A stretch of 64,000 nt of DNA from Escherichia phage SUT_E520: the sequence record OQ990040. One strand, given 5' to 3'. The translations under genes and the position numbers were made by a program. Under the pieces are notes generated by a model. It worked only from the letters and a program-made list of their open reading frames with translations. It did not search any database and had not been told where the DNA came from. Numbering within the stretch: the stretch's first letter is position 1; each line of letters opens with the position of its first letter. Shown here in pieces: positions 106-16,724 of this stretch.

Positions 106-134
106 ATTATATTAGAAATTTAGCTTCATAGCAA
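106..134 (-). promoter_or_regulatory. sigma70-type early promoter (TTGCTA-17-TATAAT) driving tRNA-Ser
   Basis: Minus strand reads TTGCTA, 17-nt spacer, TATAAT; member of the repeated promoter module. Confidence 0.6.
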
Positions 135-633
135 GAAAATTTTTCAAGTTTTCGGTAGACATCTCATCCACATCTACGGGAGAAACAAAGCCGTTTAATT
201 TTCTAGCAAATTTTTCACCCGCAGGATCGTTGTCTCCGACAGCTACCAATTTAAAAGGTAATAATTTCAGTTGCTTTAATAACGCTTTTCCTGGAGAAGA
301 ACCTAACATTGCCAGGGCTGGATAACCAGCGTTATGTAGCGCAACTGCCTTAAATACAGATTCAGCGATCAATACTACTTTTTCATCTCCATTGAGAGTT
401 TCTAGTCCCCATACACACTGGGTAGTAGAATAAGTAAAATATTTAGCTTCAAAGGGACACTTACCATGACCTTTTGGAGCAGAAGGATTATACGTCTGAT
501 AGCCTCGCAACATCCCGGAGAAGTCATACAACGGGACTGTTAGCCATCCTTCCGGACTTAACCAGCAATGATATTTATCTGTATCAAATCCTCTGGATAA
601 GAGGTGCTGTGTTAGCTCATCAACATTCATATT
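112..633 (-). CDS. Toprim-domain protein (primase/nuclease-like fold)
   Basis: ORF track 112..681; start moved to MNVDELTQ ATG, which lies downstream of the promoter and behind a GAGAGAGG RBS; conserved Glu (IAES) and DxD (GDNDPAGE) Toprim motifs. Confidence 0.55.
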   Translation of the reverse strand, partial: NMNVDELTQHLLSRGFDTDKYHCWLSPEGWLTVPLYDFSGMLRGYQTYNPSAPKGHGKCPFEAKYFTYSTTQCVWGLETLNGDEKVVLIAESVFKAVALHNAGYPALAMLGSSPGKALLKQLKLLPFKLVAVGDNDPAGEKFARKLNGFVSPVDVDEMSTENLKNFLAMKLNF

Positions 634-660
634 TGGTTCCTCTCTCAAATTTATAGATAT

Positions 661-689
661 ATTATACAGAGAATTTAGCATTCAAGCAA
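661..689 (-). promoter_or_regulatory. sigma70-type early promoter (TTGCTT-17-TATAAT) with ATAAATTTGAGAGAGG leader
   Basis: Minus strand -35/-10 hexamers at 17-nt spacing followed by the conserved leader and RBS. Confidence 0.65.
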
Positions 690-805
690 TCAAATTTTTT
701 AACTTTTTAGAGGAAAATCATAGGGCACTTAAGGGTAGCAGATAAGTGGGGAGGACCAAAATTTGTGACCCCACTAAAAATCCGGGGGCAATTTTTAAAG
801 ACCCC

Positions 806-834
806 TTGACATTTTCGCTGGGGTAGTGTAAAGT
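806..834 (+). promoter_or_regulatory. candidate sigma70 promoter (TTGACA-17-TAAAGT) for the plus-strand cassette
   Basis: Consensus -35 TTGACA, 17-nt spacer, weak -10 TAAAGT about 60 nt upstream of the 897 start. Confidence 0.4.
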
Positions 835-896
835 ATATGTTATGGATGAGTGATCAAAGAGACACACATTTTCTATATACTAGGAGGTGTCAAAAT

Positions 897-1886
897 ATGA
901 CAGAAGAAGTAGCTAAGAGTCCTGAGACCGTCGCTAGCGTTGCAGCAGAACTGCACCGTCACGAGGAATCAGATAAGAAAAAGTGGGAGAAGGTCAGAGC
1001 CTACGAAGAAAAACATCGTGAACACGATGATGAAGAAGAAGATGACGATGATGAACATTGTCATAAATATGGAAAACATAAAATGCAAGAACCAGTAAAC
1101 GTATTCACTAGTGGCTTCCCTGGCCTACTGGGTGGTTACCCAGCAAACGCAGGTGCTTTCGGTGGTGAAGGTATGGGACTATTCGGAGCTATCCTAATCG
1201 GTGCTCTATTAACCGGCGGATTCGGTGGTTTCGGTGGATTCGGTGGACGTGGTGTAGTTGGTGAAGGTACCGCAGTTGATGCAGTACTTCAGAACCAAGA
1301 TACCGCTAGTATTCTAGCAGCTATCAACACTACTCGTACAGAGGCTAACCAGGGTACTGGAGCTGTTTTAAGCGCAGTTAACAATGGTTTTAGCCAGACA
1401 ACCCAAAACCAGAGCCGTGATACTCAGTCTGTACTAACTACGATCTACGGTACAGGTGCTAATCTGTCTAATCAGATCTGCCAGGAAACTCGCAACGTTA
1501 TTCAGGGTCAGTTCGATCTTTCTCGCCAGATTGATCAATCTTTCGCAGCTAACCAGATAGCTCGTGCACAAGATAAGTTTGATTCTGCACAGATCGCTTT
1601 CCAGCAGACTTTACAAACTAATAACCAGTTTGCCGCTGTTCAGGCTCAGATGTGTGCTAACCAGAACTCTCTGGAACGTCAGATCGCTGAATGTTGCTGT
1701 GAACTTCAGACTGCGATCGCTGGTGTAACTACTGCGCGTATCCAGGATGAGTTAGACGCATGTCGCCTACGTGAAGCAATCGCTGCGGGTAGCGGTGCTA
1801 ACGGTCAGGTAATTAATCAAATCGCTTTAAGTCTTGGTGCTATCACTCAGACTCTGGCTGGTCTGCAGGCTAAACTGCCGGCTTAA
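897..1886 (+). CDS. hypothetical low-complexity protein: acidic/His-rich N-terminus, Gly-zipper hydrophobic segment, Gln/Asn/Thr-rich C-terminal region with Cys clusters
   Basis: ORF track 837..1886; ATG at 897 follows RBS TAGGAGGTG; segments HREHDDEEEDDDDEHCH, GLFGAILIGALLTGGFGGFGGFGG, ECCCELQ. Confidence 0.7.
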   Translation: MTEEVAKSPETVASVAAELHRHEESDKKKWEKVRAYEEKHREHDDEEEDDDDEHCHKYGKHKMQEPVNVFTSGFPGLLGGYPANAGAFGGEGMGLFGAILIGALLTGGFGGFGGFGGRGVVGEGTAVDAVLQNQDTASILAAINTTRTEANQGTGAVLSAVNNGFSQTTQNQSRDTQSVLTTIYGTGANLSNQICQETRNVIQGQFDLSRQIDQSFAANQIARAQDKFDSAQIAFQQTLQTNNQFAAVQAQMCANQNSLERQIAECCCELQTAIAGVTTARIQDELDACRLREAIAAGSGANGQVINQIALSLGAITQTLAGLQAKLPA

Positions 1887-1907
1887 TATTAAGGGGAGGA
1901 GCCCATT

Positions 1908-2324
1908 ATGAGTAAATATGGTTTTGTAAATAACGGACTTAATCAAAGTATGGGCTCCCAGCAGCCCATTCCGGGTCTGGATAACCCCTACTTACAACAG
2001 TTGCAACAGCGTTTAGCAGAAGCGCAACAGATGCAGCAACAACTCCAGCAAAACCCTGGAAGTGTGAGTCCTATGCAAATGATGCAGCAAATGAGCGGGC
2101 AGTCGCAAATGCCTCAACAAATGCAGCAACAGGTGCCTCAGCAGCAAGTTCAGCAACAAACCCAACAACCGCAGGTTTCTGCGGAAGGACAGGCAGTACT
2201 AGCCCTTTTCGAAGACTTCGCAAAGACAGAGGATGGGAAACAGCTTGTATCACTTATGGGTAAGTTTAATAGCTTCTGCCAAAGCCAAGTTGCAAAAGCT
2301 CAAAATGGGGGTAGTAACTCCTAA
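1908..2324 (+). CDS. hypothetical glutamine-rich protein
   Basis: ORF behind RBS AAGGGGAGGAG; long Q-rich stretches (QQLQQRLAEAQQMQQQLQQ, QQMQQQVPQQQVQQQTQQPQ). Confidence 0.7.
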   Translation: MSKYGFVNNGLNQSMGSQQPIPGLDNPYLQQLQQRLAEAQQMQQQLQQNPGSVSPMQMMQQMSGQSQMPQQMQQQVPQQQVQQQTQQPQVSAEGQAVLALFEDFAKTEDGKQLVSLMGKFNSFCQSQVAKAQNGGSNS

Positions 2325-2333
2325 GGAGGAAAT

Positions 2334-2528
2334 ATGTGTTGCAGAAAATCTGTTTCGTGCTGCCCAGTGCCTGTAGCACGTTGTTGCTCTCCAGCAATGT
2401 TTACGCAAATACCGGCGTTCAATCCCTTTGCCTTTAAGCCTACTCTTATCCTGCCCCCTAGAGTAGATTTTCAGTCAAGATTGGCCTCCCGTATGGGTGG
2501 TTGCTGTACACCGAGAGTATGGTTCTAA
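2334..2528 (+). CDS. hypothetical small cysteine-rich protein (four Cys-Cys dyads)
   Basis: 64-aa ORF behind RBS TAAGGAGGAAAT; CC dyads at residues 2-3, 9-10, 17-18, 57-58. Confidence 0.6.
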   Translation: MCCRKSVSCCPVPVARCCSPAMFTQIPAFNPFAFKPTLILPPRVDFQSRLASRMGGCCTPRVWF

Positions 2529-2540
2529 ACCAAAAACAAA

Positions 2541-2574
2541 AGCCCCTGCCGAAAGGTAAGGGGCTTTTTCTTTT
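2541..2574 (+). terminator. intrinsic terminator ending the plus-strand cassette
   Basis: GC hairpin AGCCCCT...AGGGGCT followed by TTTTTCTTTT. Confidence 0.7.
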
Positions 2575-2580
2575 GCCTTA

Positions 2581-2619
2581 AATACAGAAAAGCCCGCGCT
2601 CTCGTAGGAAACGCGGGCT
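2581..2619 (-). terminator. intrinsic terminator downstream of the SPFH gene
   Basis: Hairpin AGCCCGCG...CGCGGGCT with a T-run on the minus strand. Confidence 0.6.
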
Positions 2620-2643
2620 TGGTTCGAAGATTACGTGTAACTA

Positions 2644-3591
2644 TTACTTGTTACGCATATCCATGATCATTTGACCATCGTAGCCAGTACCTACCACAGT
2701 CTGAGGTACACCACCTTGATACTTCTGAGCACGGATCATTTCAACTTCCAGTTGTTTCCAACGAATCATTTCAGGAGTAATGGTACGTTGCAATGCGGCG
2801 TTAGCTTCAGCTTCTTTCTTAGCTGCGTACAGTTTAGCATCTGCGTCACGTTCATTAGCAATAGCTTGGTTGTTACGAGCTTCACGATCTGCTTCTGCTT
2901 GTTTAACTTTTTGCTGTGCTTCCTGTTCAACGCGAGCAAGTTCAGCTTTCGCAGCATTAACTTGCTCTTCACGAACTTTGGTATTCTGTACCTGTTCCAT
3001 GATTACTGGCGGCAAGGTAATATCCTGAAGGAATACCTGCTTAACTGTGTAACCATATGGGCGCGCATACTCTTCAACTTCCTGTTGAATTGCAGTTTGC
3101 AATTGAGCCTGAATTTTAGCATCAAATAAATCTTGTGCTTTAGGTACAGACTTACCAAACTCACGAATAGTAGACAGTAATTTTTCAGTTACATACTTGT
3201 CTAGTGCCTGATCCTGAGTACCTGCGTTAATACGGTTAATCGGTGCTTTAGAACCATCAAACTGCAACATAACAGTCAGGTCAACAGTGGATTTAAACTT
3301 ATCCTGGCTAGGAACCTGAAGTTTATCTAATTTTACAGCAATATCTTTTGTACTAAAAGTATCGAAAGATGCAAACGGGTTTACAAGATGGAAGCCCGGC
3401 AATACTGGATTAGGGTCTACTTTACCCAGGAATGTTTGGGTTTTAACCGTACCATCAGAAACAATAGTATATGAATTAAAAGCTAGGATTAAACCTGCTA
3501 AACCAACTACAGCACCAATACCCCAACGTTTAATAGTACGAATTACTTTCTGCTCAGAAGTCAGTTCTTTCATATTTTTAGTAGCAAACAT
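2644..3591 (-). CDS. SPFH/band-7 (prohibitin/HflKC-like) membrane protein
   Basis: N-terminal transmembrane segment (GIGAVVGLAGLILAF), band-7-like core, long charged coiled-coil tail (AKAELARVEQEAQQKVKQAEADREARNNQAI). Confidence 0.6.
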   Translation of the reverse strand: MFATKNMKELTSEQKVIRTIKRWGIGAVVGLAGLILAFNSYTIVSDGTVKTQTFLGKVDPNPVLPGFHLVNPFASFDTFSTKDIAVKLDKLQVPSQDKFKSTVDLTVMLQFDGSKAPINRINAGTQDQALDKYVTEKLLSTIREFGKSVPKAQDLFDAKIQAQLQTAIQQEVEEYARPYGYTVKQVFLQDITLPPVIMEQVQNTKVREEQVNAAKAELARVEQEAQQKVKQAEADREARNNQAIANERDADAKLYAAKKEAEANAALQRTITPEMIRWKQLEVEMIRAQKYQGGVPQTVVGTGYDGQMIMDMRNK

Positions 3592-3625
3592 ATATTTCCT
3601 TTGTTTTAGTTACAGTTAATAAAAT

Positions 3626-3700
3626 TGGCCGAGGTGACAGGATTCGAACCTGCATAAAGGAATTTAGAAGACTCCTGCCTCTCCCTTAGACTACACCCCG
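3626..3700 (-). tRNA. tRNA-Arg (anticodon UCU); CCA encoded
   Basis: Reverse complement folds as acceptor CGGGGTG/CACCTCG, anticodon stem GGAGT/ATTCC with loop CTTCTAA, T arm GCAGG-TTCGAAT-CCTGT, 3' GCCA. Confidence 0.75.
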
Positions 3701-4202
3701 TTTAAGTATTTTTAAGAACTCTCGTAAAAACTCTTAAAAATACAGACGATACCGGGAGAGTCATAAGTCTCACTCATTAAGTATTTCAAGACAAAATACA
3801 GTAACGTCTATTATTTTCCAGTTTAAGTCAGGGTGACTTAGTGGTTATGTCCTGCGGTATATTGAGGACTCGGTTAGGCTTGGGGTCATGACTTCCCACC
3901 TTTTGCTGCTACTCAACAGGAGTTATCGCGAATTACCTGTGCTATTGTGCACCATTAGTGACATCTCTCATGTCAGCATTTCCCACTTTGTGGATAGCTT
4001 GAAAAACTACTCCGATATGGAGAAAGAACTTCACTATCCTAGAATACCTTCTAAAGTTCTTCTTTAGCCTGGACATAGTTAAATCGTAATAAAACTATTC
4101 AGCAGACTGGTTGGTTAGTCTGGAACCAACTACCGCGTGGTTTAGGCAGTGCGCAACTAACCTCGGAAGCTTTTATGTTAAAAGCATCAGTTATCCAGTT
4201 CT

Positions 4203-4274
4203 TACCGACCGTAGGATTCGAACCTACATCTTCCACCAGTTACGGCTTGATAATACCAATTATACTAGGACGGC
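4203..4274 (-). tRNA. tRNA-like element, possibly degenerate; anticodon not resolved (CGU is one possible reading)
   Basis: Perfect T arm GTAGG-TTCGAAT-CCTAC and 6/7 acceptor pairing, but irregular D and anticodon arms and no encoded CCA. Confidence 0.35.
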
Positions 4275-4497
4275 AGTGTTACTACATAAGTGATTTCCAC
4301 ACCCCACTATTTATAAATCAGAGAAGAGTTTAGGGGAGAGGTTTCAGACGCCTCATTTTACACGTTCTAGCCACTAACCGGGATTGCCGCCCCCTGTGTA
4401 CTAGTTTTACAACTAACCCACCGACTCTATTCAATGCGCTCCGGTTGGGATTCTGCACTCAGCGTAATCGGCTCGCTGTTCCCTAATTTATGAATAT

Positions 4498-4526
4498 ATT
4501 ATACAGAATTTATAAGCATTTAGCAA
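4498..4526 (-). promoter_or_regulatory. sigma70-type early promoter (TTGCTA-17-TATAAT)
   Basis: Minus-strand hexamers at 17-nt spacing; transcribes leftward into the tRNA/noncoding region. Confidence 0.65.
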
Positions 4527-4534
4527 ATGAATTT

Positions 4535-4969
4535 TTAGAAAAATTCACTAGCAATCAAAGCAGTTGTTTTACCGTCATAACGTCCGGGAAATTCTGCCTT
4601 AATAGTTTTCATTAATAGAGCTTTGGTAATACCTGGGTTTAATTTAACCAGTTCTGCAAAATACTCACGAATCTGAACCTCAGTCAGTTGACTTGGCTGA
4701 TACTCTTGCAGCATGGAATAAAGCAGTTGCTCATAGTCTACATCAGTAGGAACTTCCATACCAACTTTAATAGCGCGTTGTTTTGCATTTTCTAGAGCCT
4801 TAATCTGAGCTTTCAGATAGGCTACGAACTCGGTTCGAGTAACAATGTCTTTATCAATACGTTGCAGATCACCAATCATGGTCTGAAGATTAAGTGCCCG
4901 TTCCTTATCACCGTGAGTACGTGCTAGACTAAGTAGTCCACGAAGGGTCATTAGAATATTTTCACCCAT
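4535..4969 (-). CDS. hypothetical protein
   Basis: 144-aa ORF; its ATG overlaps the stop of the upstream small ORF (TAATG). Confidence 0.6.
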   Translation of the reverse strand: MGENILMTLRGLLSLARTHGDKERALNLQTMIGDLQRIDKDIVTRTEFVAYLKAQIKALENAKQRAIKVGMEVPTDVDYEQLLYSMLQEYQPSQLTEVQIREYFAELVKLNPGITKALLMKTIKAEFPGRYDGKTTALIASEFF

Positions 4970-5139
4970 TATTTCATCCCCAATGCTTGGTTAAAAGATT
5001 GTTCTGTCATAACTGCTGAGACTTTGGCGAAATCAAACTTTTTAGGGTTCGTAGTTATTTCAGCAACGTTAGAAGTTTTAACAGTTTTCGTAGTACGAAT
5101 ACCGCGAGTGTTAACACCAATAATTACAACTGATTTCAT
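4969..5139 (-). CDS. hypothetical small protein (56 aa, MKSVVIIGVNTRGIRTTK...), absent from the ORF track
   Basis: ATG 8 nt after RBS GAGAGGAAG directly downstream of the 5171..5199 promoter; stop overlaps the next start. Confidence 0.5.
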   Translation of the reverse strand: MKSVVIIGVNTRGIRTTKTVKTSNVAEITTNPKKFDFAKVSAVMTEQSFNQALGMK

Positions 5140-5170
5140 ATTTCGCTTCCTCTCATTAATTTATGAAAGT

Positions 5171-5199
5171 ATTATACAGAAATTTAAGTAGCTAAGCAA
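5171..5199 (-). promoter_or_regulatory. sigma70-type early promoter (TTGCTT-17-TATAAT)
   Basis: Minus-strand hexamers at 17-nt spacing plus CATAAATTAATGAGAGG leader. Confidence 0.65.
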
Positions 5200-5207
5200 G
5201 TAAATTT

Positions 5208-5657
5208 TTAAGTTTTAGTGACAACAGGTTTATAGAATGTATGTCCCTTAATCTTAGTTGTTTTCTTAAACTTCTTTGTCCAGTAAGGTTTATCTTTACC
5301 ACTATGGAAGTATAGTGCTCCATATGTAGGATCTTGTGGTAAATCAACGTAGTATATCACTCTAGCTAAATTCTTAGCGGTTTGCCAAGCCTCATCAGTT
5401 TTATCAACTTTTGGTCTCTTAGATACCCAAGAGAACTGGTTAGACTGATATACTACTTTACAGTAGGAATCTGGGAATTTACCGGAGTTTACACGGTTTT
5501 TAGTAACATGTGCAATCGCCGTCATTCCCTTTATGCCCTCACCACGACTTTCGAAATAGATATTTTTAGCAATGCAATCTATTTCTTTTGCATCGTGCGA
5601 TGCCTGACTACTAAAGCTGAAGGTAAGGGCAGCTACTAAAAGCAAAGCTGCCTTCAT
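5208..5657 (-). CDS. secreted cell-wall hydrolase, SleB/CwlJ family, with signal peptide
   Basis: ORF track start is TTG; the ATG at MKAALLLVAALTFSFSSQA follows RBS AGGAGT; motifs NIYFESRGE, AIAHVTKNRV, VVYQSNQFSW. Confidence 0.65.
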   Translation of the reverse strand: MKAALLLVAALTFSFSSQASHDAKEIDCIAKNIYFESRGEGIKGMTAIAHVTKNRVNSGKFPDSYCKVVYQSNQFSWVSKRPKVDKTDEAWQTAKNLARVIYYVDLPQDPTYGALYFHSGKDKPYWTKKFKKTTKIKGHTFYKPVVTKT

Positions 5658-5662
5658 TCTTT

Positions 5663-5980
5663 TTACTCCTGCCAATCATATTCAACACGATTGGGATTTT
5701 CTTTATACCCTAAGTCAAGCAAATCATTACGCATATTTTGCTTAGCTACTGGGTTCGAGGTTACTAGTACCACTTTCTTTGGTCTCTGCCCAAATTCTAA
5801 GAGTAAACGAAGAATTTGATAACCTTCCATACCATCTACAGCCAAGTCATTATCCATATAAACGAAATGGCCGGTGGTATCAGTTTTATTCAGAAACTCT
5901 ACAGCGGCTTCTGGGGTTCGAATGATAATGTCCATTCCGTGAAGATTACGCACATCATCAATCAAAATATGAAAAGTCAT
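5663..5980 (-). CDS. stand-alone CheY-like response-regulator receiver domain protein
   Basis: 105 aa; ILIDD acidic pocket, FVYMDNDLAVDGMEGYQILRLL matching the phospho-Asp region, VLVTS (Thr/Ser), LGYKENP (Lys); no output domain. Confidence 0.55.
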   Translation of the reverse strand: MTFHILIDDVRNLHGMDIIIRTPEAAVEFLNKTDTTGHFVYMDNDLAVDGMEGYQILRLLLEFGQRPKKVVLVTSNPVAKQNMRNDLLDLGYKENPNRVEYDWQE

Positions 5981-6010
5981 AATAGCCTCGTTTCATCAAT
6001 TTAAAAATAT

Positions 6011-6039
6011 ATTATACAGATAACTTAGTAACTTAGTAA
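6011..6039 (-). promoter_or_regulatory. sigma70-type early promoter (TTACTA-17-TATAAT)
   Basis: Minus-strand hexamers at 17-nt spacing upstream of the receiver gene. Confidence 0.5.
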
Positions 6040-6430
6040 ATTAGCAAATACATTTTTAAATTGTGAAACTAGTAAACCGATAAACAGCCTAGAGGCGCCA
6101 CAGGCCATATCTTATGAGCCATGTACCTTTGATCTAGGGTTTGAATCATCAACGAATACTTTGCATCTTTTAGCTTTAGAAGTTTAGAAGTTTGAGTTCT
6201 TTAAACTTTTCAGCTTTCATACTTAAATGTTGATCTTTGAAGTTGTGTCGGTAATATCAACGACGCTTTGTTCTTACGTGTCAGCTTAAAAGGCTGGTGT
6301 AATAAACATAATCTCCAATAGATTATACTTTATAGTATGGTCAGCGGTCTTATTTAACCCCGTATTTCAACCGCTGCTGCGAGGTAAGATGCTTGGGCTT
6401 TCGTCTACCGATTTACTAGCTTTTAAATTA

Positions 6431-7069
6431 TTACTCTACTTCAATGAAGGTAGAGGCGTTAGACTCGGACAGAACAAAGTCAACATTTGTTGCAAAGTCC
6501 TGGTATTCCTCGTCATGCTGCTTAATCAACTTCTCCAGTTCCAGCGGATCAATCAAGAATGGAGTATTCTTGAGTTCCAGCAGGTTGAGTTGCATTTTAA
6601 CTTCATCTTCGGAAGTTTTCTTATCACGGGTAGCCATGCTATCCTGCAAACGCTCATATTTAGCATCAAACTGTGCTTTCTGCGTATTAAACTTAACCGT
6701 AGCGGCATGGAACTGCTTACGCATGTTAGCCAGCAGTTGAGCTTTAAGCTCCATAGAACGCTTAGCTTCAATTGCTTCCGCAACAGTCATTTTACGAGAA
6801 CCGATCTCAACGATTGTTTCTGCATTGCTCTTAATCAGAGCAGATTTAATACGATCACGCTGAGACATCATATCCAGCAGAGACTGGAAATCAGTCTTAA
6901 TACGAGTAGACAGATCAGCTACTTCGATTGCAGCGCCAACTACAACCTGGTTTTTATCCTTACCTTCACCAACAGCGATCAGAAGCTGCTGTTCAGTAGC
7001 TTTACGGATTTTAGCTTCCAGAGATTTGATAGTTGCTAGAGCGCGAGTTTTAGAAATACGAGTAGTCAT
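6431..7069 (-). CDS. hypothetical protein, predicted alpha-helical
   Basis: 212-aa ORF behind RBS AAGGAAACAAATA. Confidence 0.6.
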   Translation of the reverse strand: MTTRISKTRALATIKSLEAKIRKATEQQLLIAVGEGKDKNQVVVGAAIEVADLSTRIKTDFQSLLDMMSQRDRIKSALIKSNAETIVEIGSRKMTVAEAIEAKRSMELKAQLLANMRKQFHAATVKFNTQKAQFDAKYERLQDSMATRDKKTSEDEVKMQLNLLELKNTPFLIDPLELEKLIKQHDEEYQDFATNVDFVLSESNASTFIEVE

Positions 7070-7122
7070 TATTTGTTTCCTTATATGAGGTTTGAGATTT
7101 GAATTTGTTTAAAGTTGGTCTA

Positions 7123-7305
7123 TTACAGACCAATTGCCAGCAGAGTGCGCAGAACAGTATCGTTACTGTTATCAATTTTAGGATTAGCACGATTTAGCAG
7201 ATCAAAGATTTTCTGGACACCTGATTGACGTTCAGCCATACGACGGATACCCAGATTACGAGTAGCTTTCTTACCATTTTTACGAACATTTTTAGATACT
7301 GGCAT
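7123..7305 (-). CDS. hypothetical small basic protein
   Basis: 60-aa Lys/Arg-rich ORF behind RBS AAAAGGAAAACAAAT, first gene after the 7346..7374 promoter. Confidence 0.5.
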   Translation of the reverse strand: MPVSKNVRKNGKKATRNLGIRRMAERQSGVQKIFDLLNRANPKIDNSNDTVLRTLLAIGL

Positions 7306-7345
7306 ATTTGTTTTCCTTTTATTGTTTTCTCAAATTTATGAATAT

Positions 7346-7374
7346 ATTATACAGAATTTTGGAGCCGGAAGCAA
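7346..7374 (-). promoter_or_regulatory. sigma70-type early promoter (TTGCTT-17-TATAAT)
   Basis: Minus-strand hexamers at 17-nt spacing plus ATAAATTTGAGAAAAC leader. Confidence 0.65.
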
Positions 7375-7375
7375 A

Positions 7376-8077
7376 TCAAATTTTCATTTTTTCGATCATA
7401 GCTGCAACACAATAGCTTTCAACTAAGGCATCAAATGCAGGATCATGCTTAACCGGATAGATCCCATAACGAATGGTGTCCATCTTCTCCATTTTAGCTT
7501 TTGCCCAGCTAATACCTTCAGCCTCTAGATCTTTGTAACTATAATCAGCTTGCATCCAGAGATTACGAAGAGATCGAACATTGCCCAAATTCCAGAATTT
7601 CCACGGAACTACCTCTTCATTGGTTCCAGCATGGAATGTGTTTGCAGAGTAGATAGTCATATCAAACTCTGGGCCATTACCATAATACAAAGCATTTTCG
7701 CCTAGAGCCAACTCCATAATATTTTGAGCCATAGAGAAGGCAGCATAGTTTGAGCCAAATTTATTAGTGCAATGATGTTTACCATTTTGGAAGGCAATCA
7801 GTTTTGGATTACGTTCCTTCATAGCTTCCATAATGTGAATAGCAGACGGGCTATTTTTAGCTTGATCCATCCAGAATGCTAGAGTAGATGCTGTAACTTT
7901 AGCACCAGAATTAAGCTGATCTTGTACATCCAAAGTAACAAATACTAGATCAGGGTCTTTATCAATTCCATGCATAGCCACAAAAGCGAAAGAAGGCATT
8001 GCGATATGAGTAGTACCACAATCTCCTGGAGTTCCCAGAGATTCAATATCTAGCATACCAAATGGTTTTACTTTCAT
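7376..8077 (-). CDS. putative 3'-5' exonuclease (T4 DexA-like, DEDD fold)
   Basis: N-terminal MLDIESLGT resembles the DexA D-x-E motif (DFETMG); FWMDQAKNSPSA parallels the DexA WWKNQSPEA region. Confidence 0.45.
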   Translation of the reverse strand: MKVKPFGMLDIESLGTPGDCGTTHIAMPSFAFVAMHGIDKDPDLVFVTLDVQDQLNSGAKVTASTLAFWMDQAKNSPSAIHIMEAMKERNPKLIAFQNGKHHCTNKFGSNYAAFSMAQNIMELALGENALYYGNGPEFDMTIYSANTFHAGTNEEVVPWKFWNLGNVRSLRNLWMQADYSYKDLEAEGISWAKAKMEKMDTIRYGIYPVKHDPAFDALVESYCVAAMIEKMKI

Positions 8078-8105
8078 AAGTTATCCTTTATTGTGTAGAA
8101 AACTA

Positions 8106-8342
8106 TTAAAGAGCTGTCTCTTTAATAGACTCCCACTTCTTGGGGTCTTTAAAACCAGGGAGCATATCCTCACTGACATCCCAGTTCTCTTCCATAGAGA
8201 AGTCGGGCCATTCATCCCAACTACCTTCCAACTCTTCATAACAGGTATCCATTACCTCATGACTAGAAAGTCGTGTATAATCCCTAGCTGACTTATGGGT
8301 GGTAGCACGGTTAAAATCATTCTTTGCCACAAAATTACGCAT
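8106..8342 (-). CDS. hypothetical small acidic Trp-rich protein
   Basis: 78-aa ORF; C-terminal half is Asp/Glu/Trp-rich (EELEGSWDEWPDFSMEENWDVSEDM). Confidence 0.5.
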   Translation of the reverse strand: MRNFVAKNDFNRATTHKSARDYTRLSSHEVMDTCYEELEGSWDEWPDFSMEENWDVSEDMLPGFKDPKKWESIKETAL

Positions 8343-8357
8343 AGTTTCTCCAAATAA

Positions 8358-8380
8358 GAGGGGCTTTCGCCCCCTGATTT
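8358..8380. terminator. GC hairpin, intergenic terminator or attenuator
   Basis: GGGGC-TTTC-GCCCC hairpin flanked by A/T runs on both strands. Confidence 0.45.
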
Positions 8381-8383
8381 AAA

Positions 8384-8599
8384 TCACTTGCCCAGCAGTT
8401 TAAGGATATTTTCCATAATAGTTTGGGCAGATTTTTCACTCTTGTTGGTTTCAGCCAACTTTAAAGCGAGTTCTTCCTGCTGTTTCTGAATATCAGCTGC
8501 GATTTTTTGATCAGCCTCAATACGAGCTTGAAGCTCATCAGTGATAGTGGTAAAGGAAGCAACGATTTCAGTAACAGAACGTGGTTTCTTAGAGAACAT
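8384..8599 (-). CDS. hypothetical small helical protein
   Basis: 71-aa ORF behind RBS AAGGATATTTTTT. Confidence 0.5.
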   Translation of the reverse strand: MFSKKPRSVTEIVASFTTITDELQARIEADQKIAADIQKQQEELALKLAETNKSEKSAQTIMENILKLLGK

Positions 8600-8663
8600 A
8601 AAAAATATCCTTGATTAGTTAGAGAATTAGTGGATTGTAGGGGCTTCTGCCCCTATTTATCTA

Positions 8664-9179
8664 TTACTTCGCTTTACGCTTGCGAGCTGGTTTAGCAGAT
8701 TTACGAGCAGAATCACCAGTGAACTTAATGCCTACACCGTAACACAGAGCGCGAACATTATCTTTACTATACTCTACGCCAAAGATATTTGGCTTAACAG
8801 AACCAAACTGTCCACGAGTATCGCGCAATACATCTGCTGTTGGTTTACGCTTCTGGTTAACTGCCTTCTCGTAGTCTTTCATAGACATACCATTACGAGA
8901 GAACAATTCAGCCCCAGCGTTGAAACTCAAAGATACTGGGACAGATTTGTGGCCGTAATTTTCTACATACATAACCATTTTGTAGGATTTACGGGTGGCA
9001 TTTTTAGCTTTAGGCTTCTTACGAATCGGAGCCGGATTATTCAATGCTTGCGCAGCCTGAGCATCGGTAGGATGCTTACGCAGGTGACGTTCCAGACGAG
9101 CTTTGCGATTAGCCTCGGTCTGCGGGAAAGTTTTAACTGCCGGGGCTGCTTGAGTTTTTGCGTTTTTCTGCTTAGCCAT
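8664..9179 (-). CDS. hypothetical basic protein
   Basis: 171-aa Lys/Arg-rich ORF behind RBS AAAGGAAAACAAATA, first gene after the 9218..9246 promoter. Confidence 0.6.
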   Translation of the reverse strand: MAKQKNAKTQAAPAVKTFPQTEANRKARLERHLRKHPTDAQAAQALNNPAPIRKKPKAKNATRKSYKMVMYVENYGHKSVPVSLSFNAGAELFSRNGMSMKDYEKAVNQKRKPTADVLRDTRGQFGSVKPNIFGVEYSKDNVRALCYGVGIKFTGDSARKSAKPARKRKAK

Positions 9180-9217
9180 TATTTGTTTTCCTTTTTGTTT
9201 ATCAATTTATGAAGTAT

Positions 9218-9246
9218 ATTATACGAGAATTTGAAGCGTTTAGCAA
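9218..9246 (-). promoter_or_regulatory. sigma70-type early promoter (TTGCTA-17-TATAAT)
   Basis: Minus-strand hexamers at 17-nt spacing. Confidence 0.65.
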
Positions 9247-9254
9247 ATGAATTT

Positions 9255-9704
9255 TTAATTTATTAACTGTAAGCTTCTTTTAATTTCAGACCTTACTTGC
9301 ATCAAAAGGACTCCTAAAGTATTATCCCCGATGCCTCGGCAAACACCCCAATATGTATCTCCCCAGGTATTTCCTTCGATCAAAGTTGCATTTTCTGTTG
9401 CTAACAGTTTATCTCTTAAATCAGGAATTGCAAACTTTAATCGTAAAAGCTCTAGCATTACATCATCTTTTACTTTATCCCAGTCAGAGCGTAGGGTTAA
9501 TTTACGTCCTCTACGTTTAGCAACTCCTGCATTTAGGGAGCGGAGTACATGAGCTACATCATCTTTTTGGTCGGATTTCATAGCCTGAAAAGCATGTTCT
9601 ACAGTATCAGCATGCCATATCTCATTTAGATATTCGAAAGTAATTGGTGATAAATAAAAGTTAGATAAGAAACTATAAGTACCTTTAAATTCAGTAATCT
9701 TCAT
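9255..9704 (-). CDS. NADAR (YbiA-like) domain protein, candidate N-glycosidase / ADP-ribosyl hydrolase
   Basis: FLSNF, W...EHAFQA, LIEGNTWGDTYWG, GDNTLGVLLMQVR match the YbiA/NADAR pattern. Confidence 0.75.
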   Translation of the reverse strand: MKITEFKGTYSFLSNFYLSPITFEYLNEIWHADTVEHAFQAMKSDQKDDVAHVLRSLNAGVAKRRGRKLTLRSDWDKVKDDVMLELLRLKFAIPDLRDKLLATENATLIEGNTWGDTYWGVCRGIGDNTLGVLLMQVRSEIKRSLQLIN

Positions 9705-9985
9705 TTTTTACGCCCCGCATCTTTAGCCTCCTCGGCTGTATAGATATACTGATAAGCCCCTTTGGAGTAGGCTGGAGCAGTACACATTTTCTTACGCTCA
9801 ATCTCTTCTTGAGCTTTTCTTTCGCGTTCCGCTAATTCTTCGTCCAAATAAACTAAACGTTGTTCTGGAGGAGGTGGAAGACGTGTTTCTGGCTCGCCAA
9901 TATTAGCCTTTCTTATTTGACGAGGTGATTGTGCACGTTTTCTCAATGGTTTAAATCCTAATGAATTTGAGTTATAGATCCGCAT
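9701..9985 (-). CDS. hypothetical protein
   Basis: 94-aa ORF behind RBS GAGGAGGG; overlaps the NADAR start by 4 nt. Confidence 0.55.
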   Translation of the reverse strand: MRIYNSNSLGFKPLRKRAQSPRQIRKANIGEPETRLPPPPEQRLVYLDEELAERERKAQEEIERKKMCTAPAYSKGAYQYIYTAEEAKDAGRKK

Positions 9986-10012
9986 AAAGCCCTCCTCACT
10001 TTCAATACGAAT

Positions 10013-10041
10013 ATTATACTAAATTATAGGGCTTTAAGCAA
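10013..10041 (-). promoter_or_regulatory. sigma70-type early promoter (TTGCTT-17-TATAAT)
   Basis: Minus-strand hexamers at 17-nt spacing. Confidence 0.6.
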
Positions 10042-10062
10042 GAGAATTTTTTAATTTATTTA

Positions 10063-10539
10063 TCACATCTCAGCCATTTCAGCTTCAGTAATAACTGTAT
10101 TACATAAGGCGTCTACAGCCTCATTACCACTAATACCAGAATGTCCTTTAACCTTAATAAAGGTAGGGTTAGTATTATGAAAGTTGATATACTGCTGTGT
10201 TAATTTAAATGCTTCCTGCCAAAGTTCTAGATTAAGAGGAACTTCACCATCTGCTTTCTTCCAGCCTTTCCTTTGCCAAGAAAACATCCAACTTTCCATG
10301 CCATTTTTGCAATAAGCAGAGTCAGTATAGATAGCAATTGGTCTATTATCTTTTTTAACAGACCAACGTAGGGCTTCTACGATAGCTGTGAGTTCCATCT
10401 CATTATTTGTAGTTTTAGGATTATAACCAGATTTAGAACCTAAACGATCGTCGTTATCATCATAGACAATAAAACCCCAAGCACCTGGACCTGGATTAGA
10501 CTTACAAGCACCATCTGTGTAAATGTGGAAAACCGACAT
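10063..10539 (-). CDS. rnhA: ribonuclease HI
   Basis: IYTDGAC, ELTA, IYTDS, VKGHSGISGNEAVD motifs; start set at MSVFHIYTDG, giving ATGA overlap with the upstream gene. Confidence 0.8.
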   Translation of the reverse strand: MSVFHIYTDGACKSNPGPGAWGFIVYDDNDDRLGSKSGYNPKTTNNEMELTAIVEALRWSVKKDNRPIAIYTDSAYCKNGMESWMFSWQRKGWKKADGEVPLNLELWQEAFKLTQQYINFHNTNPTFIKVKGHSGISGNEAVDALCNTVITEAEMAEM

Positions 10540-10820
10540 TATACCTCCCAACTAATTTTAAGACCCATGTCTACAAAGGCGGCTTCTCGGTAGTATTGAG
10601 AGAGATGATACCCCTTATCCGATAAGGTTTTTAGTACCGATTTAGCGGCTCCTGGCATTTCTCTAGGATTATATAGCCACCTAGCGTAAGGATTATCTCG
10701 AATAATTACTTCTGTATTTCCAGACTTAGCAGCTTCTACAATCTTTTCTTCTATAAACTTTAGAAAAGCGGGTACTTCTGTTAATCCTGCAAGTTCTTGG
10801 GCTTCTTTGGCTGAAATCAT
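10539..10820 (-). CDS. hypothetical protein
   Basis: 93-aa ORF translationally coupled to its neighbours. Confidence 0.55.
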   Translation of the reverse strand: MISAKEAQELAGLTEVPAFLKFIEEKIVEAAKSGNTEVIIRDNPYARWLYNPREMPGAAKSVLKTLSDKGYHLSQYYREAAFVDMGLKISWEV

Positions 10821-11020
10821 GGCTTTTCACCTTCTGCTACACTTCTGGTTTTTGGTGGGATGGGAGGGTTAGGTTTTATAGCCGCTAATTCCCTATCTAA
10901 GAATTCCTCTATTGCTCTATCTACAAAGTAGTCATAGGGTAAATGATAATGTTCTGATAGAGTAAGAAGTTTGTGCTCTTGGCTTTCTGTTAAATAAACT
11001 TTCTTTCTAAAGAGTCCCAT
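10817..11020 (-). CDS. ribbon-helix-helix (CopG/Arc-like) DNA-binding protein
   Basis: 67 aa; KKVYLTESQEHKLLTLSEHYHLPYDYFVDRAIEEFLDRE fits a beta-strand plus two helices RHH layout. Confidence 0.5.
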   Translation of the reverse strand: MGLFRKKVYLTESQEHKLLTLSEHYHLPYDYFVDRAIEEFLDRELAAIKPNPPIPPKTRSVAEGEKP

Positions 11021-11046
11021 ATGTGTATCTCCAATCTATAAAATAT

Positions 11047-11075
11047 ATTATATTTAAATTTCACTAAATAAGCAA
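11047..11075 (-). promoter_or_regulatory. sigma70-type early promoter (TTGCTT-17-TATAAT)
   Basis: Minus-strand hexamers at 17-nt spacing. Confidence 0.6.
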
Positions 11076-11093
11076 ATGAAATTTAAATATAAT

Positions 11094-11113
11094 AGCCCCG
11101 AAGGGCTATTTAA
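11094..11113. terminator. GC hairpin terminator (AGCCC-CGAA-GGGCT)
   Basis: Short hairpin flanked by AT-rich runs between the RHH unit and thyA. Confidence 0.45.
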
Positions 11114-11114
11114 A

Positions 11115-11969
11115 TTACACAGTGAATGGATATGCAATAGCAGGATGGTGTTCGTAACCACGAACAGTAAAATCATCCTTATTTACCCAGGTCAATACAT
11201 CCTCCAGAGTTCGGATATTTGGATTGATTTCTAGAGTAGGAGGTGCAAAGGGTTCACGATCAAATTGCTTATGCTCCATCAAAACATTATACTGATCCTC
11301 ATAGATATGAAGATTGATAATCTTCTGGCGTGCAATCCCTGGTTTAAGGCCTGTAATCTGTGCCATTAATGCTAGAAGCGTATAGCACTGAACCATGTTA
11401 AATACTTGGCCTAACAGGAAGTCATTAGATCTCTGGAAAGAGTTCAGATATAATGTATCTCCCAAAATAGAGAACTGATGAGTATGCATACATGGACGTA
11501 AGCAACCCTTTGAGAACTCCCCCGGATTCCAGAAGGTTAGAATTTCCCCACGATCATCAATGCCCTTTTTCAGATTATGATAAATCTTGGCTAGTTGGTC
11601 AAACATAAGACCATCGGAATTAGTCCACTGACGTCCTTGAACACCATAGACTCGTCCCATATCATCCTCACCTTTACGGTATGGATTGTCTAGCCAAGCT
11701 AAGTTTTCATTTGCATTAGCATTCCATGTGTTAACACCAATAGCGCGGAATTGTGCTGCTGAATCATACCCACGTAGATACCCAATCATTTCCATTATTG
11801 CTTGTTTTGCAAACGCCTTACGAGTAGTAATAAGTGGGAATTCACCTGCACCTACGTTAAAAGTAAAATCTGCATCAATAATGGTGAGGCAACGAACCCC
11901 TGTTCTGGGATTCGTTACCCACTGACCTTCTGATAGAATACGTTTTCCAACTTCTATATACTGATCCAT
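11115..11969 (-). CDS. thyA: thymidylate synthase
   Basis: [10 protein letters not shown] active-site Cys motif and [13 protein letters not shown] motif; 284 aa. Confidence 0.9.
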
Positions 11970-12502
11970 TAATAAGTAACCAATTCCTGTACAAATCGCA
12001 GGCTGTTATCACTGTTTGCGCCAGTTGCGTAAACTAAACGAGTAGATTCATAGTTGTAATCTAGAATCGTATTATCCAGATATACATCTGCCTCTAGTTT
12101 TTGATTACTAAAGATTGTGGATACAAAAGCACTTTCAATATGACCATATTGATACATTTCTAGAAGAAGGTTAGCACCACCTAGAACTACTGTCTGCTGA
12201 TCTTTCAGAAATGTAGGTAAAGCATCCCCAATCTTAGAAATTGGGGTGTAAATATCATGTGTAATATCATCTGGCAGTGGACGATCAGCACGAATAAATA
12301 GGTCAGAAGCTCCAATCATACGTTCTCTAACGGCGTATGGAAGAGCTAAATAAGTACCCGCACCAATGATGATGTTATCTGGATTCAACACGTCCAGTTG
12401 AGAATAGAAAGCATCTAGTTCTTCTTTGAAGGAACCCCATGGAAGTTTACCGCGGAGGCCGAACTCCCCATTCGGCCCAACTGCATACATTGCTGTAATC
12501 AT
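11969..12502 (-). CDS. frd: dihydrofolate reductase
   Basis: [23 protein letters not shown]-terminal DHFR signature; adjacent to thyA. Confidence 0.8.
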
Positions 12503-13644
12503 AAGAAATCTCCAAATTCATTACCCAGATCTTTCAGAGTATCAGTAGAGGTCTCAGTTACCTGACCTACACGGTAGGCTGCACCAATCTGGATTTCTTG
12601 TGGAGCAGGCTGTAGAGAAGTAGTATCCAACCAGTTCATAATCCACGGAATAGGGTTTTTGGTGATTACTGGTAAATGACTAGGCCATTCTACACCGATG
12701 TGCATAAATGCATTACGTCCCACAAAATACAGATATTCTTCTAGAAGTTCTGCATTCAAGCCAATCAGACTACGACCTTTGAAAATGAAATGACCCCATT
12801 CAATTTCAGTTTTCAGAGTTTTCAGGAGCTGTGCTGGTGCTTTAGCCACTGCTTCATCTACCAGATCTTTGTCAAATTGCTGAAACATAATCTGGATGAT
12901 TGCTTTGGACATCTGAGTGTGCAGAGCTTCATCTTTAGCGATTAATTGCAGATTTTTAGCAATACCTTGCAGAATATCGTTCTCTGCTAATGCAAAGGTA
13001 CATGCAAAGGATGCGTAAAACTGCATTGCTTCCAGACCATAGATCGCAAAGTAAGCGTCTAATAGTTTAGCCTGAGTTTCACGTTTAACTTCAGGGAACT
13101 CAGTTTCTGGATATGTATTGTCGCCACGATGATCGCGTACTGCGATGAAATACTGACCTAACTGGTACAGTTCATCGAATAGTTCAACAGAATCAGCGAT
13201 GCGCGCGAATGCTTCTTGGTTTTTGGTTACAGAATCAATAAATTCTGCTGGATCAGTCAGCACATTACGAATAATATTGCTATAAGCACGACTATGCAGG
13301 TCTTCAAAATAGCTCCACTGTTTGAGCATACCTTCCAATTCTGGACGACTTACAAGCGGCATAATAGCTGCTTCAGGGGCACGACTAATAAAGGAATCAG
13401 TTTGAGTTTGCCATGCTAAGTTCAGGAGTGTAATTTCCTGAATTTCTCGTGGGAGATTAGGCCATTGTTTCTTATCTGCTTCCAGACTGATTTCAGTTTC
13501 AGTCCAAAATTGAGAGCGCTGCAGAAGTGCCAGACGTTCTAGTTCTGGATGTGCTACACGTACATAATCTGCGATACCGAGAGAATCTCCCAGGAAAAGG
13601 TCGGCGTTAGTATGATCCCAATTCAGGTTTAGTAAAGTAGTCAT
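12499..13644 (-). CDS. nrdB: ribonucleotide reductase class Ia small subunit
   Basis: Di-iron ligand motifs including KDEALHTQ; 381 aa; upstream of nrdA. Confidence 0.85.
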   Translation of the reverse strand: MTTLLNLNWDHTNADLFLGDSLGIADYVRVAHPELERLALLQRSQFWTETEISLEADKKQWPNLPREIQEITLLNLAWQTQTDSFISRAPEAAIMPLVSRPELEGMLKQWSYFEDLHSRAYSNIIRNVLTDPAEFIDSVTKNQEAFARIADSVELFDELYQLGQYFIAVRDHRGDNTYPETEFPEVKRETQAKLLDAYFAIYGLEAMQFYASFACTFALAENDILQGIAKNLQLIAKDEALHTQMSKAIIQIMFQQFDKDLVDEAVAKAPAQLLKTLKTEIEWGHFIFKGRSLIGLNAELLEEYLYFVGRNAFMHIGVEWPSHLPVITKNPIPWIMNWLDTTSLQPAPQEIQIGAAYRVGQVTETSTDTLKDLGNEFGDFL

Positions 13645-13675
13645 TGATTTTCCTCTTTCTCACTATTTCAGGAAT

Positions 13676-13704
13676 ATTATAGCAAATCTGGTAGCGATTA
13701 GCAA
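13676..13704 (-). promoter_or_regulatory. sigma70-type early promoter (TTGCTA-17-TATAAT) upstream of nrdB
   Basis: Minus-strand hexamers at 17-nt spacing. Confidence 0.6.
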
Positions 13705-13710
13705 GTAAAA

Positions 13711-14193: not shown

Positions 14194-14223
14194 AATCTAA
14201 AATTACAGCTATGATAGGCCTAA

Positions 14224-14247
14224 TAAAGGGGCTTTCGCCCCTTATTT
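14224..14247. terminator. GC hairpin terminator (AAGGGGC-TTTC-GCCCCTT)
   Basis: 7-bp stem flanked by T-runs on both strands. Confidence 0.55.
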
Positions 14248-14248
14248 A

Positions 14249-16582: not shown

Positions 16583-16661
16583 TTGGCTTTCCTTTTTATA
16601 GTTATCAGGATTTAAGGAATATTCTACTTTATTATCGGTCATTAGGCAAATAAAATTTTCT

Positions 16662-16697: not shown

Positions 16698-16724
16698 TGT
16701 ATATTACCAGTCTAGCTTTTTAGC

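Follow-up and report, generated by a model that had tools for sequence, protein, structure and literature searches.

Bacteriophage T5 is a model phage, and three of its adjacent genes, T5.077, T5.078 and T5.079, have been 'hypothetical' since it was sequenced; a genome-wide T5 study lists all three as unknown. They adjoin an 8-kb deletable 'anti-defence island' of which the gene rad is part, and T5 tRNA genes near them cancel PARIS and retron toxicity. Here we analyse the orthologous genes, p1, p2 and p3, of Escherichia phage SUT_E520 (sequence record OQ990040). The window is a stretch of 64,000 nucleotides of this record, and all positions refer to it unless a contig is named. The genes themselves are already catalogued, so the cassette is not newly seen. 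They are orthologous to genes of T5, BF23 and phage 5, and the record of the phage 5 tRNA gene region (AJ604531) annotates a promoter (P12), three ribosome sites, open reading frames (ORFs) of 327, 138 and 64 amino acids (aa) and a bidirectional terminator, ter1. What appears to be undescribed is the family signature of p1, the conservation of the three genes as a module together with its transfer to a Pseudomonas phage, and the rule that the cysteines of p3 occur as adjacent pairs.

Several described systems share features with the cassette. As in a two-component spanin (Rz/Rz1), p1 has a single N-terminal hydrophobic segment followed by a long helical Cys-bearing domain, p3 is a small, proline-rich, Cys-bearing partner encoded close by, and distant relatives lie near endolysins. 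However, an i-spanin is N-in/C-out with a periplasmic coiled coil, whereas the charges flanking the p1 segment favour the opposite topology. The cassette is also away from the T5 holin-endolysin genes, is optional in T5-like phages, and belongs to a family that is found on contigs of 26–33% G+C as well. No lipobox was found in any ORF within 3 kb of 16 family loci, and p3 has no signal peptide; a two-component spanin was therefore excluded. Class III holins with their antiholins (T4 T with RI/RIII; C1, or T5.041, in T5) likewise combine a large single-pass membrane protein with small soluble partners, and the T4 r genes are accessory and dispensable, as the cassette appears to be. Here we found no sequence or profile similarity, however, and the cassette is not adjacent to the T5 holin gene. 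Holin families gave no match in Pfam or PHROGs, and we know of no sequence signature that unifies holins.

The order of elements in p1 is also that of the class I viral fusion subunits HA2 (influenza) and HEF2: first a hydrophobic Gly-rich peptide (GLFGAI...), next a turn rich in Gly and aromatic residues, and last a long N/Q/S/T-rich helix. A broad p1 profile (A4) matched HA2 over these elements with E = 0.002–0.3 (about 21 bits), but the similarity fell to E = 0.4–1 with a second profile (A5), which also weakly matches keratin and reovirus sigma-1 coiled coils. In contrast to HA2, T5-type p1 has no C-terminal transmembrane anchor or cleavage-activated N-terminus, and Foldseek gave no match to HA2 in the PDB. 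We regard this likeness as an architectural analogy only. Adjacent cysteines, through which MerF/MerT and ArsD bind soft metals and the collagen III C-terminal cystine knot makes interchain disulfides, are another point of contact. These proteins use adjacent Cys, not CxxC, as do the p3 pairs and the p1 CCC triplet, and they have no sequence relationship to either protein. Such adjacent-pair and triplet usage has no described counterpart among phage proteins. Finally, the cassette is like a moron or an anti-defence island in that it is an autonomous opposite-strand unit, patchily distributed and horizontally transferred, beside rad and the T5 tRNAs. Classically, though, a moron is a gene of a prophage.

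We found that the cassette is a self-contained, autonomous transcription module with a promoter, three translationally coupled genes and a terminator, and that p1 defines a widespread phage family with a strict signature, including an invariant CCC. We propose that the three products form an inner-membrane-anchored, cytoplasm-facing, thiol- or metal-linked complex that may act on the envelope for a conditional benefit. We give this proposal a probability of roughly 35%.

The module begins with a sigma-70-type promoter on the plus strand at 806–834 (P12 or T5P21; TTGACA-17-TAAAGT), which agrees with the consensus at 10/12 positions and is the sole sigma-70-like site within 600–2750. It is 96–98% identical to Epseptimavirus, is annotated as P12 in AJ604531, and is a putative early promoter in AY587007. 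All three genes and their ribosome-binding sites are on the plus strand, and the binding sites, which are evident in the sequence, are also annotated in AJ604531. The site AGGAGG (882–887) precedes p1 (897–1886; 329 aa; T5.077 orthologue; PHROG 8119), GGAGGA (1895–1900) precedes p2 (1908–2324; 138 aa; T5.078 orthologue; PHROG 7894), and AGGAGG (2324–2329) precedes p3 (2334–2528; 64 aa; T5.079 orthologue). The operon ends at the intrinsic terminator ter1 (2538–2574, plus strand), a 13-pair hairpin with a T-run that was identified by RNA folding and is the bidirectional terminator of AJ604531. In the distant T5-like metagenomic contigs L005 and L006, the orthologues are preceded by the same promoter hexamers with the same spacing, and an equivalent plus-strand terminator directly follows p3 in L006 and in the KPP23-like contig L007. 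In distant lineages, gene starts lie 1–3 nucleotides from the preceding stop or overlap it, which points to translational coupling. The autonomy of the module follows from this conservation of the promoter hexamers and of back-to-back terminators in distant T5-like relatives, together with the terminator after p3 in the KPP23-like contig. The initial annotation had described three plus-strand genes inside a minus-strand block, with their own TTGACA-type promoter, strong ribosome-binding sites and terminator, and this description holds. The minus strand carries every other ORF of at least 110 aa in 112–17709 except two (2671–3129 and 6389–7039), both of which overlap minus-strand ORFs.

Judged by how they evolve, all three ORFs are real genes and not compositional noise. 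Pairwise ratios of non-synonymous to synonymous substitution (dN/dS) of 0.06–0.17 for p1 and 0.15–0.25 for p2, each with a strong third-position bias, indicate purifying selection. The start of p1 is at 897, as shown by the ribosome site and by all orthologues; the longest ORF opens at 837, its first ATG. In the initial annotation the products were called low-complexity proteins, a term that says too little of p1, in whose model the stalk forms long ordered helices, and each gene evolves as a normal coding sequence. Its description of an acidic/His tract, a Gly-rich hydrophobic segment and a CCC cluster in p1 was correct. The CxxC clusters that it listed are absent; the cysteines outside the CCC at 266–268 are single (residues 55, 195, 253 and 289).

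The p1 protein opens with an amphipathic helix (aa 12–44; 930–1028, plus strand) that has the motif AELxxHExxDKK, is conserved in long-form relatives and is modelled with a predicted local distance difference test score (pLDDT) of 90–96. The acidic/His-rich tract (aa 37–62; 1005–1082) varies in length in alignment A1, and a conserved PVNVF motif separates it from the hydrophobic segment, GLFGAILIGALLTGGFGGFGGFGG, whose best 19-residue Kyte-Doolittle window scores 1.72. This segment belongs to a Gly-rich hydrophobic module (aa 73–118; 1113–1250), with the core GMGLFGAILIGALLTGGFGGFGGFGG followed by R. Several Gly and Leu residues of the module are invariant or nearly so in A1, and the core LFGAILIGALL is as hydrophobic as a transmembrane helix. 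After the segment come GGF repeats and an Arg. A helical stalk (aa 126–326; 1272–1874) follows. In the AlphaFold2 model it consists of helices 126–132, 135–166, 172–276 and 279–326, with pLDDT 81–91 at residues 180–270; this model used a 74-sequence alignment and has a mean pLDDT of 69, and one from a 17-sequence alignment (pLDDT 48) was unusable. The codons of Cys266-Cys267-Cys268 are at 1692–1700, in the motif Q-I-A-E-C-C-C-E-L. The C-terminal helix (aa 279–326; 1731–1874; NGQVINQIAxSLGAITQTLAxLQ) shows almost no variation among the T5-like and KPP23-like relatives in A1 and is absent from the one short-form member of that alignment. This helix is a candidate docking site for p2 and p3.

In T5 ATCC (AY587007; L010, 1529–2553) and in the T5-like genome L033, p1 is split or truncated, the first stop coming after 135 and 112 aa, respectively. 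Either an error in sequencing or genuine loss in laboratory stocks could explain this.

An exhaustive profile search placed p1 in a family of about 187 representative clusters, with members in virulent phages of widely differing hosts, namely T5-like, crAss-like, eiAU-like and low-G+C-host phages. Like the other members of this CCC-stalk family, p1 has a Gly-rich hydrophobic head, an N/Q/S/T-rich helical stalk and the CCC. Most members are 240–290 aa long and open directly at the hydrophobic module (the short form); His-rich N-terminal extensions recur among distant members. The CCC columns are the only invariant columns in a 24-sequence family alignment (motif Q-x-A-x-C-C-C-E/D-x-K/Q), they are invariant or nearly so in the 74-sequence alignment, and most of the relatives listed have CCC. 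The hydrophobic module is also conserved in sequence, beyond its hydrophobicity (P-V-x-V...N-D-G...G-x-L-L-I-G-A-L-L-F-G-G-G). When the 24 aligned members were compared with PHROGs 8119, 9288 and 16490, 19, 15 and 12 matched, respectively. Thirty-eight complete CCC-family proteins have neither a hydrophobic segment nor a signal peptide, and they often have Gly/Tyr-rich N-termini instead. In a scan of 185,579 bacterial genomes with a narrow pattern, the family was essentially absent; one short contig of a metagenome-assembled genome matched. This near-absence suggests that the p1 family is restricted to non-integrating phages.

A sister group (P0059, P0081, P0084, P0115, P0139 and P0140) shares the p1 N-terminal helix, the PVNVF motif and the Gly-rich module and lacks the CCC, and several of its members have a different common C-terminus (...ATNQAINIGSGT...NTNVR). 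Because the head is shared and the C-terminus differs, the head and the stalk end look like separable modules.

The genes around distant homologues are almost all unannotated. A conserved protein of about 100 aa is nearly always encoded after the short-form CCC gene, in many cases along with a DUF7841 protein; these make up a second, different partner set for the p1 scaffold family. The ~100-aa protein has no family match and adjoins the short-form CCC gene in 8/9 metagenomic loci that extend past that gene (L003, 2016–2321; L014, 4365–4664; L018, 6679–6978; L019, 6612–6905; L020, 6660–6968; L021, 6608–6910; L023, 6647–6934; L015, 12303–12599). In four of about 12 independent phage contexts, the CCC gene is 0.75–1.3 kb from a peptidoglycan hydrolase gene: VanY in L003, Amidase_3 with a holin-like 88-aa protein in L014/L021, Peptidase_M15_3 in L015 and Phage_lysozyme in L023. 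Other short-form relatives lie after tail genes (eiAU gp08) or among the tail-fibre genes of a crAss-like contig. Several family contigs have 26–33% G+C and neighbours that match the XkdW, YopX and AgrB families; these neighbours presumably point to hosts without an outer membrane.

The p2 protein had been described as glutamine-rich, and glutamine does account for 27.5% of its 138 residues. This glutamine does not define p2, however, because it lies in a Q/P-rich linker that varies from about 0 to 50 residues among relatives (alignment A3). A conserved helix (NPYLQQLQQRLxEAQ) precedes the linker, and after it comes the C-terminal domain of about 45 residues (EGQAVLALFExFAKTEDGKQLVSxxGKFNSFCQS), which is conserved too and has one invariant Cys. 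No significant match to p2 was found among PDB sequence profiles (the best was ZntR, E = 0.9). The records AY587007, ESCO40, EH3 and UTK0010 give p2 the name 'cAMP-dependent protein kinase catalytic subunit (kapc)'. We detected no kinase domain, and the label most likely derives from the glutamine-rich linker. A read-through fusion of p2 with p3 was also considered; the two genes are in frame here and out of frame in three distant lineages, and the idea was dropped.

The third product agrees with its earlier description as a 64-aa protein with four Cys-Cys dyads, which are at residues 2–3, 9–10, 17–18 and 57–58. It is basic (8 K/R versus 1 D/E), contains 14% proline, starts with M-C-C and has no hydrophobic stretch. 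In 25/25 T5-like loci, p3 has exactly 64 codons and keeps all 8 cysteines, and it is full length in 220/221 tblastn records, where it is mostly unannotated. In L005, L006 and L007/KPP23, an M-C-C ORF of 60–69 codons directly follows p2, starting at its stop or no more than 3 nucleotides from it. These ORFs have their cysteines solely as adjacent pairs and share an NPF-like motif. Thus, the M-C-C start is invariant in four lineages, and in all four p3 is basic (+3 to +7, with at most one acidic residue). Residues 59–62 (2508–2519), between the last CC and the terminal WF, are hypervariable (TPRV / NKSI / NQRV); the alleles differ at 6/12 bases of this tetrapeptide, and the frame is preserved. 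A competing frame over p3 is open for only 33 codons here. From the fixed 64 codons, the kept frame, the M-C-C ORFs that recur in diverged lineages and the shortness of the competing frame, we conclude that p3 is translated.

T5-like phages, KPP23 and Pseudomonas phage RSP have the conserved M-C-C frame in common; in RSP, its product is named 'alpha/beta hydrolase like'. In KPP23 (L017) this frame is 5936–6118, and ORF072 is annotated at 5938–6132 in an overlapping GTG frame.

The cassette is conserved in about 220 phage records (p1 and p3), compared with about 429 that contain a neighbouring SPFH gene of at least 90% identity. It is thus accessory, carried by about half of the close relatives of T5. 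In phage MSP1 the cassette has been lost, with only the 3' half of p3 left (L013, approximately 2910–3760), and an HNH homing endonuclease gene lies between this remnant and the SPFH gene. The three genes recur in this layout in L005 and L006, with a p1 of about 40% identity, and also in a phage that is not T5-like, Pseudomonas phage KPP23 (56% G+C). Hence the synteny comparison that the initial annotation had recommended finds the cassette both widely conserved among phage records and recurrent in distant lineages. This distribution indicates that the three genes travel as a unit between unrelated phages, and a Pseudomonas phage has received them by horizontal transfer.

None of the three proteins has an informative match in Pfam, NCBIfam or PADLOC. 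PHROGs contains only families of unknown function that match (8119, 9288 and 16490 for the p1 family and 7894 for p2) and none for p3. When the p1 model was compared with the PDB and BFVD by Foldseek, only generic long-helix matches were obtained (E above 0.1), and the close p1 alignment matched nothing among PDB sequence profiles. The glycine-zipper families of Pfam (Gly-zipper_YMGG, Gly-zipper_Omp and Rick_17kDa_Anti) and class IIc bacteriocins did not match p1 at E up to 1 or any of 24 family members at E up to 0.01. Metal-binding and redox families (MerT/MerF, ArsD, metallothionein and thioredoxin-like) gave no match to p3 in Pfam (E up to 1) or NCBIfam. In the literature, T5.077-079 were not found in main texts, and nothing relevant was found on glycine zippers or toxicity screens. 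The absence of a characterised family, noted in the initial annotation, thus stands; no significant homology to a characterised phage protein emerged, the ORFs behave as coding genes, and their distribution is that of accessory and not of core genes.

Two specific resemblances were tried and rejected. The 'HE' helix motif of p1 resembles the lysis-associated membrane protein XhlA (PF10779), but the profile of this family did not match p1 or 10 long-form relatives at E up to 1. XhlA also has its coiled coil at the N-terminus and its transmembrane helix at the C-terminus, an order of helix and hydrophobic segment that differs from p1. For the PspA/Vipp1/ESCRT-III fold, Vipp1 was the top Foldseek match, but with E = 4.8 and a probability of 0.12; vimentin also had E above 4.

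Our model for the cassette assigns p1 the role of a scaffold. Its Gly-rich hydrophobic module would insert into the inner membrane, and its helical stalk of about 200 residues would most likely stay on the cytoplasmic side and oligomerize. The conserved last helix of p1 would be the dock for p2 and p3, its lineage-specific partners. The p1 CCC, the p3 Cys-Cys pairs and the invariant Cys of p2 may hold the assembly together, either by binding a soft metal or as a thiol-linked cluster. The evidence supports a unit of three proteins that relies for its function on these clustered thiols and on the conserved hydrophobic module. We hypothesize that, in the infected host, this complex changes the cytoplasmic membrane or the envelope. 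Candidate benefits are the exclusion of competing phages, the countering of a membrane-acting defence, or the tuning of lysis; the complex would not be needed for growth on laboratory hosts. Both the membrane insertion of p1 and a metal or disulfide chemistry of the clustered cysteines, which the initial annotation had offered as a guess, are plausible from the sequence. We infer how p1 inserts and is oriented, that p1, p2 and p3 associate, what the thiols or a metal do and which role the complex has; the following observations bear on the orientation. In 50 short-form relatives, the N-terminal tail has 0.6 K/R versus 2.3 D/E, and about one K/R follows the hydrophobic segment. A set of 98 relatives likewise has an acidic flank on the N side and about one K/R on the C side. 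By the positive-inside rule, these charges predict a cytoplasmic stalk. The 38 CCC proteins without a hydrophobic segment or signal peptide suggest that the CCC domain can fold in the cytoplasm. In addition, neither p2 nor p3 has a hydrophobic N-terminus that could be an export signal, which favours a cytoplasmic stalk.

Several observations weigh against this model. The stalk has many N, Q, S, T and A residues and few charged ones, a composition that suits coiled coils of fibres or extracellular proteins better than those of the cytoplasm. Its weak profile matches in the PDB (HA2, reovirus sigma-1 and keratin) do not favour a cytoplasmic location either. In T5-type p1, a cytoplasmic stalk would put the 70-residue charged N-terminal region outside or would need a re-entrant hairpin. 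The invariant CCC could equally make interchain disulfides in an oxidizing compartment. Distant family members are found beside endolysin genes, as expected if the cassette were linked to lysis. The proposed interaction of p1, p2 and p3 follows from their co-inheritance. As for dispensability, CRISPRi-ART scores T5.077-079 'Not Fit', but so are lys, ltf, nrdA and D10, and we have downgraded this score to weak evidence.

The main alternative is a link to lysis. It is possible, if not likely, that the p1 family belongs to phage lysis cassettes, with p1 either resembling a holin or antiholin, as a large protein that crosses the membrane once, or perturbing the membrane as a device made of a fusion peptide and a coiled coil. 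The stalk would then be outside the cytoplasm, cross-linked by CCC disulfides, p3 might be a cationic cysteine-rich peptide that acts after the holin opens the membrane, and the cassette might be an optional module for lysis timing or envelope disruption in T5-like phages. The proximity of CCC genes to hydrolase genes would arise by random placement with a rough binomial p of about 0.015, and a SleB-like hydrolase is 2–4 kb away in T5-like phages; in small genomes, however, nearness to lysis genes is nearness to tail genes too, and the T5 holin and endolysin genes are about 18 kb off. A published annotation of one T5-like phage reports no identifiable spanin (PMC12630848). Since the cassette is present in only about half of the close relatives, it cannot be the one disruptor of the outer membrane, and the lipobox scan found no such ORF within 3 kb of the 16 loci. 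The extracellular-like composition of the stalk, the HA2 matches and the basic nature of p3 in every lineage fit a lysis role, but the flank charges, the 38 members without a membrane segment and the loss of HA2 similarity with the second profile do not. The cassette lies beside proven counter-defence genes, and its distant relatives lie beside lysis genes. We think it rather unlikely that the products are cytoplasmic counter-defence or host-takeover factors, in which the Gly-rich segment would be an oligomerization 'sticker', the Cys cluster would bind a metal or a host target, and the whole cassette, like its island neighbours, would counteract an immune system of the bacterium. Consistent with such a role, the cassette adjoins rad, the tRNA genes and the deletable island of about 8 kb, it is patchily distributed and has moved to a Pseudomonas phage, the members without a hydrophobic segment have Gly/Tyr-rich N-termini, and bacterial genomes essentially lack the family. 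Nevertheless, no PADLOC model matches the three proteins, the parts of the island that proved active in a retron screen were rad, tRNA-Tyr and two further ORFs and not the cassette, and the LFGAILIGALL core is hydrophobic enough to span a membrane.

A different kind of alternative concerns p3, which might be untranslated, leaving a two-gene operon whose conserved 3' region serves as a structured 3' untranslated region, a terminator or the context of a nick site. We consider this improbable. In its favour, nucleotide conservation is unusual: 14/64 third positions of p3 (22%) vary among the 25 T5-like loci, compared with 65% in p1 and 52% in p2, and the variable sites per codon position (7, 9 and 14) show a modest third-position bias. 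Pairwise dN/dS is 0.2–1.3 on very few changes, the region 2325–2580 folds with z = -3.8, and most GenBank records have no p3 annotation. However, that z-score includes the terminator hairpin, Rfam contains no family that matches the region, and p3 has a consensus ribosome site in addition to its fixed length and eight cysteines. The M-C-C ORF with paired cysteines is also kept after p2 in three highly diverged lineages, including a phage of 56% G+C, and the frame survives across the hypervariable residues. The p3 DNA is about twice as conserved as that of p1 and p2, and its 93–97% identity is matched by other stretches of the cassette. The low synonymous divergence was therefore weakened as proof that p3 is an RNA, given also the ORF in diverged lineages; the conservation hints at an extra RNA or DNA constraint or at a recent recombinational sweep. 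Least probable of all, and by our estimate extremely so, is that p1 is a fibre-like, membrane-penetrating component of the particle with a role in genome ejection. The fibre-like stalk, the fusion-peptide-like segment and the short-form relatives near tail and tail-fibre genes would suit this role, but none of the three products is among the 18 proteins found by mass spectrometry of the BF23 virion, and the BF23 genome carries the cassette. Furthermore, KPP23 ORF072-074 are not labelled as virion proteins, unlike a neighbouring gene, a sigma-70 consensus promoter precedes the cassette, which is in the early region, and the particle is viable without it (MSP1).

Returning to the proposed membrane-anchored complex, the cassette is a well-defined, testable case in a model phage, with no evidence as yet of an unusual mechanism. 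Resolving its role could reveal a new envelope-acting mechanism or a new form of counter-defence. We can also entertain, as a doubtful extension, that the p1 family is an unrecognized class of phage membrane-active proteins, with a fusion-peptide-like head, a long stalk and a triple-cysteine knot or metal site, that carries out an envelope step with partners. If so, p1-class proteins, with two partners in T5-like and KPP23-like phages, would perform an envelope step that is assigned to no gene yet; examples are a new kind of exclusion or, in phages that lack spanins, the disruption of a membrane. Even if the function is a minor accessory one, the databases gain corrections: the missing third gene, the KPP23 frame and the spurious 'protein kinase' name.

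Over 700–2640, the window is 100% identical to Escherichia phage T5_ev212, and 380 phage records, nearly all T5-like, match this stretch. The divergent upstream neighbour is a Toprim/primase-like gene (112–681, minus strand). It is the orthologue of T5.076, which is annotated as the anti-retron gene rad in the CRISPRi-ART supplement, and it weakly matches the 'RTasDnaG-like' DRT model of PADLOC (6e-7). The convergent downstream neighbour (2644–3591, minus strand; T5.080) encodes an SPFH/Band 7 membrane-scaffold protein. Homologues of it were found in 711 phage records, among them those of Klebsiella, Aeromonas, Vibrio and Proteus phages; in L006, a different protein of 190 aa, whose N-terminus is hydrophobic, stands in its place. 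The SleB-like cell-wall hydrolase (T5.083; 5208–5675, minus strand), 2.7 kb further on, is separate from the main T5 endolysin and is kept near the cassette in L005 and L006. The T5 holin and endolysin are T5.041 and T5.040. A tRNA-like element at 4203–4274 (minus strand) scores 35.5 bits against the Rfam tRNA model and was not called by ARAGORN; AY587007 has a pseudo-tRNA in roughly the same region, between tRNA-Arg and ORF076. Finally, the SPFH gene has its own terminator at 2590–2620 (minus strand; a 12-pair stem with a T-run), which marks the boundary and is outside the operon. The equivalent of the T5 'major single-stranded nick 3, 32.6%' of AY587007 is at approximately 2596–2603, inside this hairpin. 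Thus, a T5 DNA nick site coincides with the terminator stem just beyond the cassette.

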